Counted from the first letter of the stretch, positions 1 to 52,964 are shown. The stretch is DNA of 64,000 bases from a virus (IMGVR_UViG_2778261510_000005), one strand, 5' to 3'. The notes: generated from the letters alone by a model not told the origin. Translations and numbers: made by a program.

Positions 1-233
1 TATCGCTGGCCAAAGCCTTAGCGTAGGATTCCGCCCCCTCCCGCAAACGACCCCTATAATGGCAATGTGAATGTCTTCGTAGTTGACTAAAGCCACAACT
101 CAATTATAACAATTAATTATAGCAATGGTGGCTATTTTATTTATCGCGAATCACATTTTTTCTCTTCAGTACCTGTGTGCTATACTCCTTCTTGATTGAT
201 TGGATGCGGAATACAAACCCGCTCTTTTGTGCA

Positions 234-261
234 GCCTGGCTCCTTGCCAGGCTTTTTTTTA
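234..261 (+). terminator. Rho-independent terminator-like hairpin (GCCTGGC-loop-GCCAGGC) followed by T8
   Basis: Perfect 6-7 bp GC-rich stem directly followed by TTTTTTTT on the plus strand; preceded by a TGATTGATTGG motif at 195-206. Confidence 0.5.
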
Positions 262-570
262 TTTCATCATGGAAGCTGTTAACGCTTTGGACCTTGCTGA
301 ACTGATTGAGAGGACTTTGTCAACGTGCCCCAAAAATTCGCCAAACTCAGACATCACTTTAGCAAAACCGCGCCGTGCTTCTTCCTCGGTGGCGTTCATC
401 ACGAAATGTTCAGCACTACGCATACTTTTGACAGGGAACGCAACGGATATTGAGTCAATATCAGGCATCCTGTCGCTCAACTTTACAGTGACAATGACGG
501 CTGGCGACTGAATATTAGTGCTTACAGACAGCACTACATATTTTCCGTCGATGTTGAAATCCTTTCTCAT
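259..570 (-). CDS. Hypothetical protein downstream of cre (103 aa)
   Basis: ORF on same strand as cre, beginning 50 bp after the cre stop; the overlapping plus-strand ORF 200..511 looks less protein-like. No family recognised. Confidence 0.4.
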   Translation of the reverse strand: MRKDFNIDGKYVVLSVSTNIQSPAVIVTVKLSDRMPDIDSISVAFPVKSMRSAEHFVMNATEEEARRGFAKVMSEFGEFLGHVDKVLSISSARSKALTASMMK

Positions 571-3689: not shown

Positions 3690-4808
3690 TTATTCAGCCG
3701 CCACCGGTTTTAACAAGCCAGCATCGAGCAGTTTACGCGTCAACCACTGCTGGCCTTTACCCGTTAATTGGGGCGTCAGCCGTATCTGGTAGCCATCTTC
3801 ATCATCCAGCACCACTTCTTTCACCGTGAAATACCCCGCGTTGATGTACTGCTGGAACGGCGCATTTTTACGTCCACCGGACGCTATCAGGATGCCGTTC
3901 TCCCGTAACCAGACAAACAGCGCGTTTTGCTTAAGTCCAACAACCTTTGCAAAATTCCCAATCAGGATCCCTTTAGCTACTGATACCCGGTCGGCAAAAT
4001 CGACTTTAAGAGCGGCGGCCACCAGCTGCTGATTTAGCTGGTGGGCTTTCTGTTCCAGAAGTTGCTTTTGTTCAGCCAGTTCGGCAGCCAGGCGTAGGGC
4101 TTCAGGAAGCGTCTGGGGGATTGCGATCGGTTGCTGTTCTTTTTGTCGGAAGTAGCTGTCTTCCAGTTTTTCAAAGAATGCCCATGCCTGATCGGTTTCG
4201 AGCATTTTAGCGTGGCGGGCTGCGCCGCGTTCTGTCCAGAGGGTGAGTGAGCGAACATTGCGAGCAATTTTTACAGAGTAGTTTAAAGCTACTCTGTGCT
4301 TCAACTCGCGCAATGATTCTCCTTCAACTTTGAAAAAGTGCTTCCCTTCAACAAAGCGTACTTTGTTCTCATGATGATTTTGGCGAATACGGATTGTTTC
4401 TGTCCCATACCCTCTAGCAAGAGTCTCGGTTGTCACTACACGCACTCCCTGCCATTCCAGAACGGGAATTTCATCAGACTGATTCTGAACAACCACCAGC
4501 TCCGATTCCTGAACTGAAGGTGCATGAATTTTTTCTAATTTAACGTTATTTGCTTTCATTCTGTGTGCCTCCTTGCGTGCTTCGGCTGCGACGGTTGCGT
4601 AATTCAGATGCCCCTGTTCGAGCAGGTATTCGCGGATATCAGACAACAGGATACGGTGAACCGCGTGTTTGTCCTTTCTCCGGTAAAGTTGTTTGGTGAT
4701 CATGAAGTAGTTGGCAATAACGCCTGGTATATCCCTGGTACTGATACAGGCAGTGTGCTGTTCAATTGCCTCGATCATCTCTTCACGGGTGACTAATGAC
4801 GTTCTCAT
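3690..4808 (-). CDS. Antirepressor-like protein, second Ant paralog (372 aa)
   Basis: N-terminus and C-terminal domain (IPQTLPEALRLAAELAEQK...GKGQQWL..KLLDAGLLKPVA) are paralogous to Ant at 51394..52431; about 400 bp is near-identical at nucleotide level. Start overlaps the stop of the upstream icd-like ORF. Confidence 0.75.
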   Translation of the reverse strand: MRTSLVTREEMIEAIEQHTACISTRDIPGVIANYFMITKQLYRRKDKHAVHRILLSDIREYLLEQGHLNYATVAAEARKEAHRMKANNVKLEKIHAPSVQESELVVVQNQSDEIPVLEWQGVRVVTTETLARGYGTETIRIRQNHHENKVRFVEGKHFFKVEGESLRELKHRVALNYSVKIARNVRSLTLWTERGAARHAKMLETDQAWAFFEKLEDSYFRQKEQQPIAIPQTLPEALRLAAELAEQKQLLEQKAHQLNQQLVAAALKVDFADRVSVAKGILIGNFAKVVGLKQNALFVWLRENGILIASGGRKNAPFQQYINAGYFTVKEVVLDDEDGYQIRLTPQLTGKGQQWLTRKLLDAGLLKPVAAE

Positions 4809-5026
4809 AGTCCCTCCTGAGCCGAAGCGTTAACAGGGAGGCACCAGTAACTGAGAGAATTGCGCGAATCGGTAGAAAAGCGGGCAGAGAAAATACAGGG
4901 AGCATCCGGAAGCTGAGAACGCGCCTCATCTTCTGTTGGTGCGATAACGAAGTGATAGTGACGTTTTTGGCAGGAGTAAAAGCGCCAGATAAATTCAGGA
5001 TGAGTTGGGGTAGGGATAGTAGCCAT
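4805..5026 (-). CDS. Icd-like small protein (73 aa) of a second immI-type cassette
   Basis: Internal ATG at 5026 with AAGGAGG RBS; MATIPTPTHPEFIWRFYSCQKRHYHFVIAPTEDEARSQLPDAPCIFSARFS parallels Icd at 52428..52649; same 4-nt overlap with the downstream ant. Confidence 0.55.
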   Translation of the reverse strand: MATIPTPTHPEFIWRFYSCQKRHYHFVIAPTEDEARSQLPDAPCIFSARFSTDSRNSLSYWCLPVNASAQEGL

Positions 5027-5190
5027 ATTGGCAGCCTCCTTAGACGTTGGTATGTAACCACCGCAGAAGAGACCAATCTTGCTGGCGGTGGACTGTACGG
5101 AGTTGGCCTTACTGGCGTCCAAGGTAACCAGCCTACCCGAAGGTAGCCCCATACAGCCCACCATTGTAGAGGTGTGCGTGTACGCCGATA

Positions 5191-5216
5191 CAAAAAAAAA
5201 GACGCGAGCGGCGTCT
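5191..5216 (-). terminator. Intrinsic terminator on the minus strand within the leader of the second icd/ant cassette
   Basis: AGACGC-GAGCG-GCGTCT hairpin followed, on the minus strand, by a U9 tract (plus-strand A9 at 5192-5200). Confidence 0.55.
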
Positions 5217-5340
5217 GTATCGCCTTAGACTTAAGCGGGAGGCCAATCCCGGCACCCGTTTTAATGAGGTGCCTGATAAGCATAAACCGAAAATGCCTCA
5301 AGGCGCAAGAGGTCAGGCTCAATGTAACATCGGTAGTTAA
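5217..5340 (-). ncRNA. Candidate c4-like antisense/leader RNA of the second immI-type cassette
   Basis: Lies between a C1 operator (5346-5362) and a terminator (5191-5216), upstream of the icd-like RBS; carries a second copy (5221-5229) of the RBS-region sequence CCTTAGAC (5038-5045), as in the P1 c4 decoy/target layout. Boundaries are guesses. Confidence 0.3.
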
Positions 5341-8044: not shown

Positions 8045-8129
8045 TTATGCTTCCTTTCGTAAAAACTCTTTTTGACGCGAGGGTAACGAAAGTCACATGT
8101 CAAAAGGCCCGGAACGGGCAAGCAATCAA

Positions 8130-9714: not shown

Positions 9715-9740
9715 ATCACACCTTTCATCACTGATTGGGT

Positions 9741-10702: not shown

Positions 10703-12265
10703 ATGAAAATGACAAGTATTCAACAACGTGCAGAGCTTCATCGTCAAATCTGGCAAATTGCTAACGATGTCAGAGGTTCTGTCGATGGATGGGATTTTAA
10801 GCAATACGTTCTGGGCGCACTTTTCTACCGTTTTATCAGCGAAAATTTTTCCAGTTATATGGAAAATGGTGATGACAGCATCTGTTATGCGGCACTTGAT
10901 GACGGCATTATTACTGATGACATTAAAGACGATGCCATCAGAACCAAAGGCTACTTCATCTACCCCAGTCAGCTTTTCTGCAACGTAGCGGCGAAAGCAA
11001 ATACCAATGACAGACTGAATGCAGATTTAAATAGTATCTTCGTTGCTATCGAAAGCTCTGCTTACGGTTACCCTTCAGAAGCTGACATCAAAGGTTTGTT
11101 TGCTGATTTCGATACAACCAGTAACCGCCTGGGGAATACCGTTAAGGATAAAAATGCCCGCCTGGCCGCGGTTCTGAAAGGGGTTGAAGGGTTAAAGCTT
11201 GGCGACTTTAACGAACATCAGATTGACCTGTTCGGCGATGCCTATGAGTTCCTGATTTCTAACTATGCCGCGAATGCCGGTAAGTCCGGCGGCGAGTTCT
11301 TTACACCGCAGCACGTCTCTAAGCTGATTGCACAACTGGCTATGCACGGGCAGACCCACGTTAACAAAATCTACGACCCGGCAGCAGGCTCCGGTTCGCT
11401 GTTGTTGCAGGCTAAAAAACAGTTTGATGACCATATCATCGAAGAAGGTTTTTTTGGTCAGGAAATCAACCATACGACCTATAACCTGGCACGTATGAAC
11501 ATGTTTTTGCACAACATCAACTACGACAAGTTTGATATCAAGCTGGGCAATACGCTGACTGAACCGCACTTCAGAGATGAAAAACCGTTTGATGCCATCG
11601 TTTCTAACCCGCCGTATTCGGTGAAATGGATTGGCAGCGATGACCCGACGCTGATTAACGATGAGCGTTTTGCCCCGGCTGGCGTCCTGGCCCCCAAATC
11701 AAAAGCTGACTTCGCGTTTGTATTACATGCGCTGAACTATCTTTCGGCCAAAGGTCGCGCCGCGATTGTCTGCTTCCCGGGTATTTTTTACCGTGGCGGC
11801 GCAGAGCAGAAAATCCGTCAGTATCTGGTCGACAATAACTATGTCGAAACCGTGATTTCACTCGCACCGAACCTGTTCTTTGGCACCACCATTGCTGTAA
11901 ACATTCTGGTGCTGTCTAAACATAAAACGGATACCAAAGTTCAGTTTATTGACGCCAGCGAGCTGTTCAAAAAAGAAACTAACAACAATATCCTGACCGA
12001 TGCCCATATCGAACAGATTATGCAGGTATTTGCCAGCAAGGAAGATGTTGCCCATCTGGCGAAATCTGTTGCGTTTGAGACTGTTGTCGCGAATGACTAT
12101 AACCTGTCGGTGAGCAGTTATGTTGAAGCGAAAGATACTCGCGAAATTATCGATATCGGTGAGCTGAATGCTGAGCTGAAAACCACGGTCAGCAAAATCG
12201 ACCAGTTGCGCAAAGATATTGATGCGATTGTGGCTGAAATTGAAGGCTGCGAGGTGCAGAAATGA
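10703..12265 (+). CDS. hsdM: Type I restriction-modification N6-adenine methyltransferase subunit HsdM
   Basis: 520 aa with NPPY motif ([11 protein letters not shown]) and AdoMet-binding region ([10 protein letters not shown]); same length as EcoR124-family HsdM. Confidence 0.93.
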
Positions 12266-13431
12266 GCGAGATGAGTTATCTGGAAAAATTGCTGGATGGG
12301 GTTGAAGTTGAGTGGTTGCCATTGGGGGAAGTCTCAGCCTTAAGAAGAGGCAGAGTTATGTCAAAGGGATATTTAACTGAAAATTTTGGCCCATATCCTG
12401 TCTATAGCTCTCAAACTGCAAATAATGGGAAAATAGGTTCTATCAATACCTTCGATTTTGATGGCGAATATATAAGCTGGACAACAGATGGCGCAAATGC
12501 AGGCACTGTGTTCTATCGAACAGGTAAATTTTCAATAACTAATGTTTGCGGCCTGATTACATTAAAAAGTAAATACTCATTAATCTACAAATTTCTGTTT
12601 TACTGGCTAACAATAGAAGCCAAAAAACATGTTTACTCAGGAATGGGAAACCCCAAGTTAATGAGTCATCAGGTTGAAAATATACCTGTACCAATCCCCT
12701 GCCCGGATAATCCGGAAAAATCCCTTGCCATCCAGTCTGAAATCGTTCGGATTCTGGATAAATTTACTGAGCTTACAGCAGAGCTTACAGCAGAGCTTAC
12801 AGCAGAGCTTAGCATGCGTAAAAAACAATACAACTACTATCGCGACCAGTTGTTGAGTTTTAAAGAGGGTGAGGTTGAGTGGAAGACTTTGGGAACATTT
12901 GCAGATAATTTTGATTCTCTTAGAAAACCAATAACTAGTGGATTAAGGGAGACTGGAAATATTCCCTATTATGGTGCGTCAGGCATTGTTGATTACGTAA
13001 AAGATTATATTTTTGATGATGACCTGTTATTAATTTCTGAAGATGGTGCGAATCTTATTGCAAGAAATACCCCTATAGCTTTTAGCATTAGCGGTAAAAC
13101 GTGGGTGAATAATCATGCTCATGTACTTAAATTCAAAAACTACACTGAACAAAAATTTGTTGAATATTACTTAAACAATATCAATCTTACGCCGTACATA
13201 TCAGGAGCAGCCCAGCCAAAGCTAAATAAGAAAAACTTAGAAAGTATCCGTATTCCTAATCCATCACTAAAAGAAAAAGAGCGGATTGTTACTATTCTGG
13301 ATAAATTCGACACCCTGACTAACTCCATCACCGAAGGTCTCCCGCGTGAAATCGAGTTACGCCAGAAACAATACGAGTACTATCGTGATTTACTGTTCAG
13401 TTTCCCAAAACCTGAAACAGTCAGTAATTAA
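12262..13431 (+). CDS. hsdS: Type I restriction-modification specificity subunit HsdS (type IC-like, TAEL repeat)
   Basis: 389 aa, overlaps the hsdM stop; central conserved region carries [12 protein letters not shown] flanked by two target-recognition domains. Confidence 0.9.
12769..12810 (+). repeat. 12-bp tandem repeat GAGCTTACAGCA x3.5 encoding (TAEL)3 in the HsdS spacer region
   Basis: Perfect tandem copies at 12769-12780, 12781-12792, 12793-12804 plus a partial copy. Confidence 0.95.
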
Positions 13432-13552
13432 TTGACCATTGCTACCGACCGGGCCACCTTAACATCCGGTCTGTATATAGACTATTTTTTACACGCTGGA
13501 AGTCGCCCTTAAAGCTCTTCCGGCCCTTGCCAGACGGCACAAAGGATGCGCT

Positions 13553-16500
13553 ATGACTCATCAGACATACACCATTGCTGAATCCAATAACTTTATCGTT
13601 CTTGATAAGTACATCAAAGCTGAGCCAACAGGCGACAGCTACCAGAGCGAATCGGACCTGGAACGTGAACTGATTCAGGACCTGCAAAATCAGGGCTATG
13701 AATTTATACCCGTAAAATCACAGTCAGCGATGCTGGCCAACGTTCGGGAACAGCTTCAGAGCCTCAATGGTGTGATGTTTAATGACAGCGAGTGGCGGCG
13801 CTTCACGGAGCAGTATCTGGACAACCCCAGCGATGGTATTCTGGATAAAATCCGTAAAATCCATATCGACTATATTTGCGACTTTATTTTTGATGACGAG
13901 CGTCTTGAGAACATCTATCTGATAGATAAAAAGAATCTCATGCGCAATAAGGTGCAGATTATCCAGCAGTTTGAACAGGCAGGTTCTCACGCTAACCGTT
14001 ATGACGTAACTATCCTGGTTAATGGCTTGCCACTGGTGCAAATCGAACTAAAAAAACGCGGGGTGGCGATTCGTGAGGCTTTCAACCAGATACATCGTTA
14101 CAGTAAAGAGAGTTTTAACAGCGAAAATTCCCTGTTTAAGTATCTGCAACTGTTTGTCATTTCTAACGGCACCGATACCCGTTATTTTGCCAACACGACA
14201 AAGCGCGATAAAAACAGTTTTGACTTCACCATGAACTGGGCTAAAGCAGACAATACACTGATTAAAGACCTCAAAGACTTTACCGCTACCTTTTTCCAGA
14301 AACATACTCTGCTTAATGTTCTGGTGAACTACAGCGTTTTTGACAGCAGTCAGACACTACTGGTAATGCGACCGTACCAGATTGCCGCCACCGAGCGCAT
14401 TCTGTGGAAAATTAAGAGTTCCTTTACAGCGAAGAACTGGTCAAAACCGGAAAGCGGTGGGTATATCTGGCACACTACCGGTTCTGGTAAAACCCTCACC
14501 AGCTTTAAAGCCGCGCGTCTGGCAACAGAGCTGGACTTTATTGATAAAGTCTTCTTCGTGGTCGACAGGAAAGACCTCGATTACCAGACCATGAAGGAAT
14601 ATCAGCGTTTTTCGCCAGACAGCGTCAACGGCTCGGAAAATACCGCAGGACTTAAACGAAATCTGGACAAGGACGATAACAAAATTATCGTCACTACTAT
14701 TCAGAAACTCAATAACCTGATGAAAGCAGAAAGCGACCTGCCTGTATATAATCAGCAAGTGGTGTTTATATTTGATGAATGCCACCGCAGCCAGTTTGGA
14801 GAAGCGCAGAAAAACCTGAAGAAGAAATTCAAACGCTATTATCAGTTTGGTTTTACCGGTACCCCTATTTTCCCGGAAAACGCCTTAGGCTCAGAAACGA
14901 CCGCCAGCGTATTTGGTCGTGAATTGCATTCGTATGTAATTACCGATGCGATTCGTGACGAAAAAGTGCTCAAATTCAAGGTGGACTACAACGATGTGCG
15001 GCCACAGTTTAAGTCTTTAGAGACAGAAACTGACGAGAAAAAACTAAGTGCGGCTGAAAATCAGCAGGCGTTTCTTCATCCCATGCGTATTCAGGAAATC
15101 ACGCAATATATTCTGAATAATTTCCGCCAGAAAACTCACCGTACCTTCCCTGGCTCAAAAGGTTTTAATGCTATGTTGGCAGTGAGCAGCGTGGATGCCG
15201 CGAAAGCCTATTATGCGACGTTTAAACGGTTACAAGAAGAAGCCGCTAATAAATCGGCTACCTATAAACCGCTGCGTATTGCGACAATCTTCTCCTTTGC
15301 CGCCAATGAAGAACAAAATGCCATTGGTGAAATTTCCGATGAAACTTTTGATACCAGCGCAATGGACAGCAGTGCTAAAGAGTTTCTGGACGCTGCAATT
15401 CGTGAATATAACAGCCATTTTAAAACTAACTTTAGCACCGACAGTAACGGTTTTCAGAACTACTATCGTGATTTAGCCCAGCGGGTTAAAAATCAGGATA
15501 TCGATCTGCTAATTGTCGTGGGGATGTTCTTAACCGGCTTCGATGCTCCAACATTGAACACGCTATTCGTCGATAAAAACTTACGTTTTCACGGCCTGAT
15601 GCAGGCATTTTCCCGCACCAACCGCATTTATGACGCCACTAAAACCTTCGGTAATATCGTCACTTTCCGGGATCTGGAACGCTCAACTATTGATGCCATA
15701 ACGCTGTTTGGTGACAAAAACACCAAAAATGTGGTGTTAGAAAAGAGTTATACAGAGTATATGGAAGGCTTTACTGATGCTGCTACTGGTGAAGCTAAAC
15801 GCGGCTTTATGACAGTAGTTTCAGAACTGGAACAACGGTTCCCTGACCCTACCAGTATTGAAAGTGAAAAAGAGAAGAAAGACTTCGTTAAACTGTTTGG
15901 CGAATACCTGCGTGCCGAGAACATCCTGCAAAACTATGATGAATTTGCCACGCTGAAAGCCCTGCAACAAATCGATCTTAGCGATCCTGTTGCGGTAGAA
16001 AAATTCAAAGCAGAACATTATGTGGATGATGAAAAGTTCGCTGAATTGCAAACAATTCGTCTCCCTGCTGATCGCAAGATTCAGGATTATCGTTCTGCCT
16101 ATAACGATATTCGCGACTGGCAGCGCCGTGAGAAAGAAGCTGAGAAAAAAGAGAAATCAACCACTGACTGGGATGACGTGGTTTTTGAGGTTGATTTGCT
16201 GAAGTCTCAGGAAATAAACCTGGATTATATCCTTGGACTGATTTTCGAACACAACAGACAAAATAAAGGCAAGGGCGAAATGATCGAAGAGGTCAAACGC
16301 TTAATTCGTTCAAGCCTGGGGAACCGTGCTAAAGAGGGCCTGGTGGTCGATTTTATTCAGCAAACGAACCTGGATGATTTACCGGACAAAGCCAGCATCA
16401 TTGACGCATTCTTTACGTTTGCTCAACGCGAACAGCAACGTGAAGCAGAAGCATTGATAAAAGAAGAAAATCTCAATGAAGATGCAGCAAAACGCTATAT

Positions 16501-16669
16501 TCGCACGTCTTTAAAACGCGAATACGCCACCGAAAATGGCACAGAATTAAACGAAACATTACCAAAACTTAGTCCGTTGAATCCGCAATATAAAACGAAA
16601 AAACAGGCAGTTTTCCAGAAAATCGTCTCGTTTATTGAGAAGTTTAAAGGCGTAGGCGGAAAAATATAG
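13553..16669 (+). CDS. hsdR: Type I restriction endonuclease/helicase subunit HsdR
   Basis: 1038 aa with SF2 helicase motifs (TGSGKT Walker A, DECH box) and an N-terminal nuclease region; same length as EcoR124I HsdR. Confidence 0.93.
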
Positions 16670-16747
16670 CCCAATTCGTGTTTTTCTTGCGGGTTCTTAA
16701 TTAAACCCGCAAGAGCTCGTGGGGTTCCAAATGGCTAATATACTCCC

Positions 16748-16835
16748 CTTACCCATGCGCGACGATGCCGCCAAAAGTGATAGAGAACAGCCAGAAATAG
16801 ATCGCGGCCATAATGATTTTGAATGCCGTGTTCAT
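16748..16835 (-). CDS. Candidate small hydrophobic peptide (28 aa), possible type I toxin or small membrane protein
   Basis: MNTAFKIIMAAIYFWLFSITFGGIVAHG with AGGAG RBS 8 nt upstream; not in the supplied ORF track (below its length cutoff); a plus-strand terminator converges on its 5-prime region. Confidence 0.3.
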
Positions 16836-16863
16836 ATTTTCAGCTCCTGTGATTGATTGGATA

Positions 16864-16894
16864 CATGCCGCGCCTTGCGGCATGTTTTTATTTT
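16864..16894 (+). terminator. Rho-independent terminator on the plus strand (CATGCCG-loop-CGGCATG + T-run)
   Basis: 7-bp perfect stem followed by TTTTTATTTT; preceded by TGATTGATTGG. Confidence 0.55.
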
Positions 16895-16917
16895 CACTTT
16901 CTCTGTTTTAAAAATCA

Positions 16918-16934
16918 AGATTTATTAGAGCAAT
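16918..16934 (-). promoter_or_regulatory. C1 operator
   Basis: AGATTTATTAGAGCAAT, 16/17 match; flanking context AAAAATCAAGA is nearly identical to that at 2141-2164. Confidence 0.75.
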
Positions 16935-17440
16935 TATTGCTGATGGAGAAGCGCGTTTTCATACTCCCTGACCATTAACGTAAGTACGCCGTGACTCCTG
17001 AAAACACGCGCCACGTCAATCTTATCTTCCAGCGCGAACGCAATTTTACTTAGACCAATTTTCTTCAGGAGATCAATCTTTGCTGGACCGTCATTTCTGT
17101 CATCGGTGGCAGGACGCATAGATAGCAAAGGCTCAGTCCCATTTGTTACGTGCTTACGCAACCAGGCTCGTGTTTTATCCCTGGCTATCTCACAGCGCCC
17201 GGTTACAAACCAGAGGGTGTAAATGCCGGACAACTGGCGCACCATATCAATAACTGGAGTGATGGGAGCATCAGTGTCACAGGCAAGGTTAAACTCGTTC
17301 CAGTGCTCTGTTAATGCACCTTTGCCAGGTGGTGGAAGTAAATGCAGCCTGTCTTCCGTTGCCTCTGATATCGTCCCATCAATATCTACTATGACGATGT
17401 ACGGACGTTCCTGGTGTGCGTGTTTATTGAAAATACTCAA
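16934..17440 (-). CDS. HAD-superfamily phosphatase-like protein (168 aa)
   Basis: N-terminal IVIVDIDGTIS (DxDGT) motif typical of HAD phosphatases; might correspond to a P1 pap-like gene. Confidence 0.6.
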   Translation of the reverse strand: MSIFNKHAHQERPYIVIVDIDGTISEATEDRLHLLPPPGKGALTEHWNEFNLACDTDAPITPVIDMVRQLSGIYTLWFVTGRCEIARDKTRAWLRKHVTNGTEPLLSMRPATDDRNDGPAKIDLLKKIGLSKIAFALEDKIDVARVFRSHGVLTLMVREYENALLHQQ

Positions 17441-17512: not shown

Positions 17513-18775
17513 TCAGCGAACGTAAATAGTGCCGCCGTTCTCTTTTTCCCATGCATCGCTACGTGCATAGCAAACATCGAGAAGTCTTCTTGCCGCAGTT
17601 TCCTCTAAACCCAATTCGACAACCAACTGCTCATGACGGCGGGTAACCACATCAAACAGGGTATGCAGCCCTTTAGTTGCCAGATCATCAATGAATTCCG
17701 GTTCGAACGGCAGCTCTGCATCTGCCAACATAACCTCTTGCGCCCACTCAACTCGACGGACCAATTCCGGGCGGCGGCTTTCCATCTCTTTACAGATCAA
17801 TTCATGGAAGAACTCTACCCAACCTTCCGGCTGGAACTCGCGGAAAATTGCCAACGGCTGGAAGTTTGGCATCAACCATTCGTTGATTCGGATATCAATG
17901 GCATAGCCCATGTCGCAGCAGAACTGATAAGCAAAGTCCAGCTTAGACACGATATAAGGACGCTCGTTATTGAACTCTTTAGGCGATGAGATCCCATAAG
18001 CCAGGAGGCGCGGGAAGAAGGATATTTGCCCTAACGTCGGATGAAGTTTGCTTGCAGGGAAACGGCGCTCAGTAATGCCATACATTTCCTTCTTGAGCGT
18101 CGCAAATTTGGCATTCTCATTAACCAGCGCGGTAACCTCTGCTTTTTTATTAGCAAATGCCACGCGCGCTTCGCTTGCATCTTTAATAGTTTTTTTGAGC
18201 TGTTGGTTAAGGTCGGCGACCTGCTTACGCAGTTCCTGTCGCTCGCTTTTAGCTTTGTTATAGCGTTTCTCAAGGTTAAAAGGATCAAGTTTCATGATCT
18301 CTTTATATTGAGATTTTAGCGTTGAAATCTGTGAGTTCCGCAGTTCAACCATCGCGGTCATTTCATTGAGTTTTGTTTCCAGCTCAATGCTTATACGTTC
18401 GGCATTATCAGCACGCTGGTTGGCGTCATGCGTCGCATCGTCGAGCGCGTCCTGTTGCTGGCGTTTCAAATGTTCAATTTGCAGCTGAAGCTCTTCAATT
18501 TCTTTATCCTTCAGACCGAGATCCAACTGCATATTTTCAGCTGCATCTACCAGGGAGTTATGGCTATCAGCTTCTGCGTTATAAACATCAATAAGCTGTG
18601 CGTGAAGCATCTCCGCTGACTGAACCGCATTATCAAAAAAACGCGCTGTGAGGTCATCACAACTAACGCGGCGTTGCGCGGCCCGGATGTTCTGGATAAT
18701 GGCCTGGATACCGGCATTCAGGACGTCAGGGATAGATACATTTTCGATTGATTGGTTTTGTGCTGAAGTGATCAT
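17513..18775 (-). CDS. Hypothetical protein with long N-terminal coiled coil (420 aa)
   Basis: Heptad-rich, charged N-terminal half (EELQLQIEHLKRQQQDALDD...) and a Cys/aromatic-rich C-terminal domain; no family recognised. Confidence 0.65.
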   Translation of the reverse strand: MITSAQNQSIENVSIPDVLNAGIQAIIQNIRAAQRRVSCDDLTARFFDNAVQSAEMLHAQLIDVYNAEADSHNSLVDAAENMQLDLGLKDKEIEELQLQIEHLKRQQQDALDDATHDANQRADNAERISIELETKLNEMTAMVELRNSQISTLKSQYKEIMKLDPFNLEKRYNKAKSERQELRKQVADLNQQLKKTIKDASEARVAFANKKAEVTALVNENAKFATLKKEMYGITERRFPASKLHPTLGQISFFPRLLAYGISSPKEFNNERPYIVSKLDFAYQFCCDMGYAIDIRINEWLMPNFQPLAIFREFQPEGWVEFFHELICKEMESRRPELVRRVEWAQEVMLADAELPFEPEFIDDLATKGLHTLFDVVTRRHEQLVVELGLEETAARRLLDVCYARSDAWEKENGGTIYVR

Positions 18776-52689: not shown

Positions 52690-52900
52690 CTGTCAAACAG
52701 GTGGCAGGACGTGACAGGGTTGACAGACTGGCGATTGTGAAACCAGCAGGCCGAAGCCTCCCCATCACGCCCCACCATAATTTGGGCGTAACGCGGTTTT
52801 ACGGACACAAAAATACCGCAATATCGGAAATCTGCGGTTGTCCGCACAATCATTCAGGCTGTCAAACCTGGTCGCAGAATTTGCTACGACGGCGGGAACT
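52690..52900 (-). ncRNA. c4: c4 antisense repressor RNA region (immI leader)
   Basis: Leader between a C1 operator (52965-52981) and icd holds short mutually complementary elements (CTGTCAAAC at 52690 and 52868; GTTGACAG at 52719) consistent with c4-type pairing; exact ends not determinable by eye. Confidence 0.4.
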
Positions 52901-52964
52901 ATAAGCCTGAACGATTAAAAGGTCAATATGATGCGAAAAGATAGCATTCGCCACTTAAAAATAC

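Follow-up and report, generated by a model that had tools for sequence, protein, structure and literature searches.

Bacteriophage P1, the source of Cre-lox, is among the most studied phages, and c4 is the sole P1-encoded regulatory RNA mentioned in the searchable literature. The c4 RNA of P1/P7 (RF01695) is a small RNA with short complementary boxes repeated in the phage genome, one of which covers a ribosome-binding site (RBS); it is processed from the transcript of its own targets and acts within the immI operon on the target sites a1/b1 and a2/b2. Small RNAs (sRNAs) such as OmrA/OmrB (RF00079), RybB and MicC are ~70-90 nt long and consist of a single-stranded 5' seed, a variable body and a terminator with a U tail, and those of the OmrA/RybB type act on several targets at or near the RBS. 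Among the phage-borne RNAs, host mRNAs or host sRNAs are the main targets of DicF, IsrK, AgvB/AsxR and StxS, and lambda OOP and P22 sar are cis-antisense to a single neighbouring gene. The trans-encoded type I antitoxins of the IstR-1/tisB, OhsC/shoB and Orz/Zor pairs show limited pairing to the 5' UTR of an mRNA for a tiny hydrophobic peptide.

Our analysis of a 64,000-nt stretch of viral DNA (the window) makes it fairly likely that P1 and its relatives encode an undescribed trans-acting base-pairing sRNA of ~70 nt with target boxes on phage mRNAs. Similar to c4, the candidate would be a P1-encoded small RNA with short complementary boxes repeated in the phage genome, one of them covering an RBS. 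In contrast to c4, it has a predicted promoter and terminator of its own and is separated from its boxes by >1.6 kb to as much as 18 kb; the C4 model matched the window at 5081-5168 and 52697-52782 only, with no match at 193-262, nor at 100-320 with E <= 10. The candidate has the layout of OmrA/OmrB, RybB and MicC, but its gene resides on a phage-plasmid and phage genes are the targets predicted for it, and the OmrA-B model, with which genuine OmrA and OmrB score 96.6 and 86.1 bits, had no match at window 100-320 with E <= 10. It would share a phage-borne location, a Rho-independent terminator and base pairing with DicF, IsrK, AgvB/AsxR, StxS, OOP and sar, but differs from them by an apparent regulon of 3-6 dispersed boxes on its own genome. 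Its pairing of 11-16 bp to the leader of a small hydrophobic ORF recalls the type I antitoxins, but this ORF is located 16.6 kb away rather than adjacent, and the predicted targets also include genes for non-peptide products (cra, pmgS and the JK004 Ref).

A candidate sRNA gene opposite cre and c8

Judged by alignment, the window is a P1-like phage-plasmid, because both 73-2087 and 16745-17400 align to P1. The first stretch, which carries loxP, cra, cre and c8, aligns to P1 2015-1 in reverse orientation with 97% identity, and the counterpart of the second is P1 84482-83827 in the pap-pmgT region; the genes in these regions are mostly leftward. The homology starts at window position 73 (P1 2015), just upstream of ref, and positions 1-72 are non-homologous to P1; the ref region may have been replaced or rearranged left of the window.

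An earlier note on this DNA had reported an 11-mer recurring three times. Indeed, TGATTGATTGG has three exact copies in the window, all on the + strand, but they are located at 193-203, 1892-1902 and 16850-16860, 1-5 nt from where they had been placed. The mean number of copies in dinucleotide-preserving shuffles was 0.08, and none of 100 shuffles reached three, indicating that the motif is more frequent than expected from composition. With one mismatch allowed, the window has 6 matches versus 1.87 expected, and one of these (18745-18755) coincides with the first codons of pmgS and is kept in relatives. The partial copy CCAATCA before a 347-aa gene, which is actually located at 9732-9738 and had been counted with the others, is ascribed to chance: the 7-mer occurs 10 times in the window versus ~8 expected, and no box precedes the orthologue of the 347-aa gene in Cronobacter phage JK004. 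The three exact copies are most likely non-equivalent, with copy 1 forming the 5' end of an sRNA-like gene and the others being boxes complementary to it.

The candidate sRNA gene spans 193-262 (+, ~70 nt), as delimited by the predicted fold, a terminator scan and R1, a covariance model built from the sRNA variants described below. An extended -10 element read from the sequence, TGcTATACT (178-186, +), ends 6-7 nt before the seed UGAUUGAUUGG (193-203, +), which is predicted to be single-stranded to ~201, that is, over its first ~9 nt. The seed runs into hairpin 1 of the predicted fold (202-225, +), and a linker (226-232, +) connects this hairpin to a G+C-rich 8-bp terminator stem (233-253, +; terminator scan) that is followed by a run of eight U (T8 in the DNA; 254-261, +). 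The predicted fold has an energy of -23.2 kcal/mol (z = -3.2). The gene is positioned antisense in the c8-ref spacer, on the strand opposite to cre and c8, and its promoter-terminator pair is an orphan, facing a long run of opposite-strand genes without any co-directional gene to terminate. In silico, these features constitute an independent transcription unit, with a promoter and an intrinsic terminator carrying a U tail; the transcription start site, 3' end and abundance of the RNA are predictions. With 3-4 of 6 matches, the -35 element is weak, and a consensus promoter scan did not call the promoter. The ref operator is located ~60-75 bp upstream of the sRNA promoter without overlapping it; as the two are separate, the sRNA may be made in lysogens.

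Nothing is annotated at this site of the c8-ref spacer in the detailed P1 record. Searching the whole window against Rfam at the gathering threshold gave no family matching the candidate, and at E <= 10 the surroundings of both the sRNA locus and the 16.8-kb locus returned just sub-threshold generic sRNA or terminator look-alikes (SorX, 22.6 bits; GcvB, 20.3 bits). Topic and literal-sequence searches of the searchable literature also gave no description of the candidate, in agreement with the earlier remark that the motif is not a described P1 signal. Copy 1 had further been assigned to the 5' region of a leftward gene. On the minus strand, 193-203 is followed by an SD-like AAGGAG, without a start codon or ORF, and neither the SD nor an ORF is kept in JK004 or in a Pantoea element, so a 5' UTR on the cre strand was rejected. 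The idea of an sRNA 3' module did not hold either, as the evidence makes copy 1 the seed at the 5' terminus of an sRNA-like gene that stands by itself on the other strand.

The same architecture, on the strand opposite to cre and c8, was found in every diverged relative reached, namely the Pantoea element (Cre 65% identical), JK004 (Cre 79% identical), the IMG/VR contigs L069, L073 and L140 and the metagenome contig L181. In P1, JK004, L073, L140 and the Pantoea element, TGnTATAnT is located 6-7 nt before GATTGATTG. Among nine variants, GAUUGAUUG is invariant, hairpin 1 varies in sequence by lineage with a constant predicted fold, and the terminator stem is 100% paired and includes two compensatory pairs in which both sides have changed. 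The seed is unpaired in all predicted folds of the window and its relatives, and the fold z-scores of the variants range from -2.9 to -4.0. A conserved seed that is accessible in the modelled folds, joined to a variable body, is the pattern expected of an sRNA. Model R1 had exactly one strong match per related genome (54-80 bits) and scored window 193-262 at 80.5 bits. Members of the P1 clade hardly differ between the -10 and the terminator, whereas the upstream flank towards Oref (the ref operator) diverges; an E. albertii plasmid carries a G-to-U change at the last seed position, and its cra box has no compensating change. P1-like phage-plasmids with the sRNA locus amount to ~700 plasmid records.

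Scans of metagenome and viral sequences for the seed plus a terminator gave one new true homologue, L181, and their other new matches were assigned to chance. A weak R1 match in JK004 (13249-13316) was rejected as a gene-end terminator, and distant relatives of the JK004 g62 protein (42-48% identity, L145-L157) were accompanied by neither a box nor the sRNA. In unrelated phages (IMG/VR L061, L072, L108 and L120), TGATATAAT/TGATATACT is followed after 8 nt by GATTGATTGAATCACATAACAAA...AGGAG...ATG, which represents a promoter and a leader starting with the same 9-mer before a protein gene. The pattern scan that gave these loci was designed for exactly that arrangement, which is probably unrelated to the P1 sRNA.

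Complementary boxes and their co-variation with the sRNA

As the DNA copies all point the same way, the sequence found on leftward mRNAs is CCAAUCAAUCA, which is exactly complementary to the seed. Box 1 (CCAAUCAAUCA; 1892-1902, -) is located in the leader of cra, at -21 to -11 from the ATG (1881), and is directly followed by the SD GAGGUG (1886-1891, -), giving the layout CCAATCAATCA-GAGGTG-aaaa-ATG. The putative regulated gene cra (1660-1881, -; 73 aa; phrog_804, function unknown), identified from the ORF list and the P1 annotation, is the first gene of the cra-cre operon. Box 1 lies downstream of the P1-annotated P3cre, and by this annotation only transcripts of this distal promoter carry the cra box. 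Box 2 (CCAAUCAAUCA; 16850-16860, -) is located in the leader of an ORF of 28 codons, at -25 to -15 from the ATG (16835), and is also directly followed by an SD, CAGGAG (16844-16849, -), in the layout CCAATCAATCA-CAGGAG-ctgaaaat-ATG. In P1, box 2 lies between the annotated C1-controlled P1/P2pmgT promoters (operator Op88) and pmgT. Box 3 (CCAAUCAAUCG; 18745-18755, -) has one mismatch and covers codons 7-10 of pmgS (start 18775). Pairing with the sRNA extends to 16 bp at box 2, G-U pairs counted, versus just 10-11 bp at cra and pmgS in P1. The SD and start codon that the motif had been said to precede on the minus strand are thus present for cra and the 28-aa ORF, but the 347-aa gene drops out with its chance copy.

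When a 13-nt seed was paired with the 772 ORF starts of the window, cra ranked first by duplex energy, the 28-aa ORF second and pmgS fourth; the top box duplexes had -15 to -15.7 kcal/mol (cra, -15.7) versus a mean of -6.4 (sd 2.0) for all starts. A scan with an 18-nt seed was discarded as uninformative, since G+C-rich pairing to the hairpin part dominated it. Comparison with the full P1 genome, as had been proposed, revealed the same three boxes and no further start-proximal ones. Copies of the 9-mer away from starts occur at 8123 and 27707 on the + strand of the window and at 82212 in JK004.

Across seven genomes or loci, we counted 21 non-self CAATCAATC sites, many of which are orthologous and not independent. 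Sixteen of them are located 0-17 nt 5' of a start codon, two lie in the first 30 nt of pmgS and three are elsewhere, so that 18 of the 21 boxes are found at translation starts. They span at least six unrelated contexts: the leader gene of the cre operon, Ref, two small membrane ORFs, pmgS and an opposite-strand Pantoea gene. This placement upholds the earlier proposal of a shared translational control element with regard to the boxes, but not the equivalence of all copies that it implied.

The diverged relatives each carry one sRNA gene and up to five boxes. In JK004, a 10-mer occurs six times, on one strand only; one copy belongs to the sRNA gene and the other five are boxes. These are located before the SD of the first gene of an operon ending in cra-cre, before a small hydrophobic ORF downstream of pap that is orthologous to the 28-aa ORF, before a second small membrane ORF with the same operator-hairpin-box-SD layout, abutting the ATG of a Ref homologue, and in codons 7-10 of pmgS, the same place as box 3 of the window. 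L143 has the same pmgS box 5' of the ORF, abutting the ATG; as this box is located in the UTR in L143 and in coding sequence in P1 and JK004, it is kept irrespective of coding. In JK004, L140, L141, L142 and Pantoea, the lox-proximal cra-cre operon has a box before its first gene, and this first gene differs among them. The Pantoea one is the first gene past a lox-like site and is unrelated to cra, but leads an operon ending in cra-cre; a further Pantoea box precedes an opposite-strand gene. The orthologues of box 2 in JK004 and L143 precede homologous small hydrophobic ORFs.

It is extremely unlikely that the repeats are chance occurrences or functionless relics of duplicated 5'-UTR cassettes. 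The leaders of the JK004 small ORFs (64.8 and 70.4 kb) do resemble duplicated operator-hairpin-box-SD modules, but the enrichment is far above chance in both the window and JK004, most boxes have the box alone and not its flanks in common, and boxes persist where the surrounding UTRs and even the first genes differ.

The flanks of the boxes follow the sRNA of their own lineage. GGC in the JK004-type sRNAs goes together with GCC in each of their seven boxes, and GGU in the L140/L141-type sRNAs with ACC or AUC in each of their six boxes, with A at the matching position. Position 10 of the Pantoea sRNA is U, and both Pantoea boxes have G or A there, not C. When the five sRNA types were assigned to the five lineages in all 120 ways, the cognate assignment had the highest total complementarity (42 versus a mean of 23). 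Complementary sites near the RBS that co-evolve with the seed, as seen here in silico, are expected of sRNA targets.

These data also bear on a protein recognition site, which the earlier note had listed as an option and which we now regard as unlikely. A phage protein (e.g. Cra or C8) or a host factor could bind such a site either in the mRNA or in the DNA immediately past the promoters, the copy near c8 being one more site and its RNA-gene features incidental. As a short direct repeat in tandem (CAAT-CAAT-CA), the box is plausible as a protein site; its position between promoter and SD varies little, and several boxes adjoin C1 operator-like sequences. In addition, the A after CAATCAATC is kept in nearly all boxes, even where it is unpairable with the sRNA, which hints at an additional constraint beyond pairing. 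However, a protein site does not predict that the box flanks co-vary with the 5' end of the lineage's own sRNA; moreover, the copy near c8 is always accompanied by an extended -10 at a fixed distance and a terminator, once per genome, and the pmgS box is kept both as coding sequence and in a 5' UTR.

A translational enhancer of the epsilon type, complementary to rRNA, was rejected. The boxes showed nothing special in complementarity to 16S/23S rRNA: their longest exact complementarity to 16S rRNA is 6 nt, and the best duplex (-10.1 kcal/mol) was equalled by 23 of 100 shuffled boxes.

The seed itself resembles that of OmrA, as nt 10-20 of OmrA read AUUGAUUGGUG and nt 10-18 are identical to nine seed nucleotides. 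The OmrA sequence compared here (locus L158, 401-488) scores as RF00079 and is carried by 5417 of 5426 E. coli genomes. We treat this likeness as a lead rather than as homology, and it could reflect coincidence, mimicry or shared targeting. That the boxes evolved as targets of host OmrA, with the phage RNA serving as its mimic or competitor, appears very unlikely. OmrA has 11 nt complementary to the cra leader (CACCAAUCAAU) in addition to the nine shared seed nucleotides, but the likeness was a post hoc observation, and among ~100 host sRNAs a 9-nt match to one of them is not unusual. Furthermore, the other boxes have no CAC extension, the lineage-specific flanks track the phage sRNA and not OmrA, and the phage RNA lacks an OmrA-B model match even at E = 10.

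In P1 and JK004, the pmgS box encodes Q-S-I at codons 8-10. The pmgS ORF of L143 (~657) begins right after the box, and the N-terminus of PmgS near the box varies by lineage; the annotated P1 pmgS start may deserve a check. The Pantoea alvi contig (L009) has the lox-like site ATTACTTCGTATAGCTCCAATTATACGAAGGAAT at 442-475, ~200 bp upstream of the boxed first gene, and three extra genes between lox and cra. Therefore, the Pantoea and JK004 lineages have a longer cre operon than P1.

The 28-aa ORF and the hairpin at 16.8 kb

The putative regulated gene behind box 2 (16749-16835, -) encodes a hydrophobic peptide of 28 aa, translated as MNTAFKIIMAAIYFWLFSITFGGIVAHG, which has no PHROG family. It is unannotated in the P1 records consulted, and SJ46 has a 44-aa "membrane protein" with a longer start. 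A conserved small hydrophobic ORF is found between the pap/Op88 promoter region and pmgT, with 28 aa in the window and 46-53 aa in the relatives (JK004, ~64630-64790; L143, ~2065), where the homologous N-terminal peptides read MHLIFKLAITAFYAWMLTVVITSF... (JK004) and MHTVFKLAMAAFYIWIFTIVFT... (L143). The product may be a membrane protein of small size or a peptide that resembles a toxin.

Directly upstream of box 2 lies a hairpin (16863-16885), which together with TTTTTATTTT on the + strand is terminator-like (z = -3.9). The earlier note had described two copies of the motif as followed by a terminator. Both hairpins are real (233-253 and 16863-16885), but only the first is conserved as a terminator. 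The pattern is half coincidence, because the second hairpin is a 5'-UTR stem-loop: its + strand T run coincides with the A/T-rich -10 annotated for P1pmgT on the other strand, and the orthologous hairpins before the boxes, at two loci in JK004 and in L143, have other sequences and no + strand T run. We thus read 16863-16885 (-) as a 5'-UTR stem-loop, located close to where the P1pmgT transcript is predicted to start, and not as the end of a second sRNA.

The alternative at this site is a type I toxin-antitoxin-like pair, in which the 28-aa peptide would be the toxin and a + strand cis-antisense RNA ending at 16863-16894 the antitoxin. This RNA, a second sRNA with the same seed, could start from a promoter inside the ORF or derive from the 3' UTR of the convergent hsdR. 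The ORF is small and hydrophobic and has 11-16 bp of complementarity to the sRNA next to its SD, and the strong + strand hairpin with its T run comes directly after the motif. The + strand has a CATAAT at 16809-14, the convergent hsdR (13553-16669, +) runs towards the site, and model R1 has a weak match there (19 bits). We nevertheless rate such a local pair as quite unlikely: the promoter scan gave no consensus + strand promoter at 16.8 kb, the T run coincides with the P1pmgT -10 region of the other strand and is missing from the orthologous hairpins, and P1 has no + strand gene upstream of the site. Neither the promoter scan nor conservation thus supports a local cis-antisense RNA at the 28-aa ORF, and the sRNA gene (193-262) neither overlaps nor adjoins the ORF (16749-16835). 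The toxin-antitoxin idea would be compatible with the trans-acting sRNA, which could itself act as the antitoxin.

Side by side with this ORF, the window carries a type I restriction-modification cassette, hsdM, hsdS and hsdR (10703-16669, +), in place of the P1 pmgT region, and P1 homology ends directly after the 28-aa ORF (16740-16828), beside this cassette. In ~280 mostly IncF plasmids, the same hsdR is followed by just the 3' part of the 28-aa ORF, cut by IS1. Because these plasmids keep the IS1-cut remnant behind hsdR, their sequences indicate that the hsd cassette moved out of P1-like elements. The plasmids were accordingly rejected as an independent context of the ORF, as their truncated copies moved with the cassette.

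Proposed regulation of P1 genes by the sRNA

In the mechanism that we propose, the trans-acting sRNA would be transcribed opposite cre/c8 from the extended -10 promoter and end at the intrinsic terminator. Its first 9-11 nt, (U)GAUUGAUUGG, would be single-stranded and pair with CCAAUCAAUC(A) boxes on phage mRNAs. The predicted targets in the window would be the leaders of cra and of the 28-aa ORF, the latter expressed from the pmgT promoters under C1 control, and, to a lesser degree, the first codons of pmgS. The boxes located 10-14 nt upstream of starts touch the SD and would fall inside the footprint of the initiating 30S subunit, so that pairing would block translation initiation, possibly followed by mRNA decay. 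The sRNA would also be fully antisense to any read-through transcript from c8 to ref. Pairing of enterobacterial sRNAs at the SD region competes with 30S binding, and translation repression is therefore the default inference; by this analogy the effect is probably repression, and activation is possible.

Gene anatomy and conservation, box placement and the co-variation of boxes with the sRNA are in silico observations, from which we infer RNA production, pairing in vivo, repression and the involvement of Hfq. In a preprint, RNA-seq of P1vir in an hfq mutant showed pmgS and pap to be over-induced and cra, cre and ref to be under-induced at 20 min (10.64898/2025.12.28.696737). The bearing of these data on the sRNA is ambiguous, and the sRNA locus is not reported there.

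More tentatively, with slightly less than even confidence, we suggest that the P1 family has a second RNA layer besides c4, in which one sRNA co-evolving with a regulon of RBS-adjacent boxes would control the lox-proximal cra-cre genes, Ref in some lineages, small membrane peptides behind C1 promoters and pmgS. If true, the P1 circuits for lysis-lysogeny and plasmid maintenance would gain a post-transcriptional level, with a regulon that takes in the first gene of the cre operon and C1-controlled transcripts, and phage lineages in which the seed of an sRNA and its target boxes evolve together would offer a clean natural case of such co-evolution. The sRNA locus is present in hundreds of P1-like phage-plasmids of clinical Enterobacteriaceae. 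The phenotype in lysogeny establishment that has been ascribed to the c8 ORF next to it might even be due in part to the sRNA, which might also tap the host OmrA regulon through the shared seed.

Apart from the sRNA, the window has a regular C4 and a1b1 (52697-52904; C4 match 52697-52782) and a second immI-like module (3690-5272, -) just downstream of pacB; P1 is not known to carry anything between c1 and pacB. The second module comprises two RNAs, one isrK-like (5195-5272, -), which scored 60.8 bits, and one a C4 antisense RNA (5081-5168, -), which scored 75.9 bits, together with an Ant anti-repressor of 372 aa (3690-4808, -) that matched phrog_63 with E = 1.9e-127.
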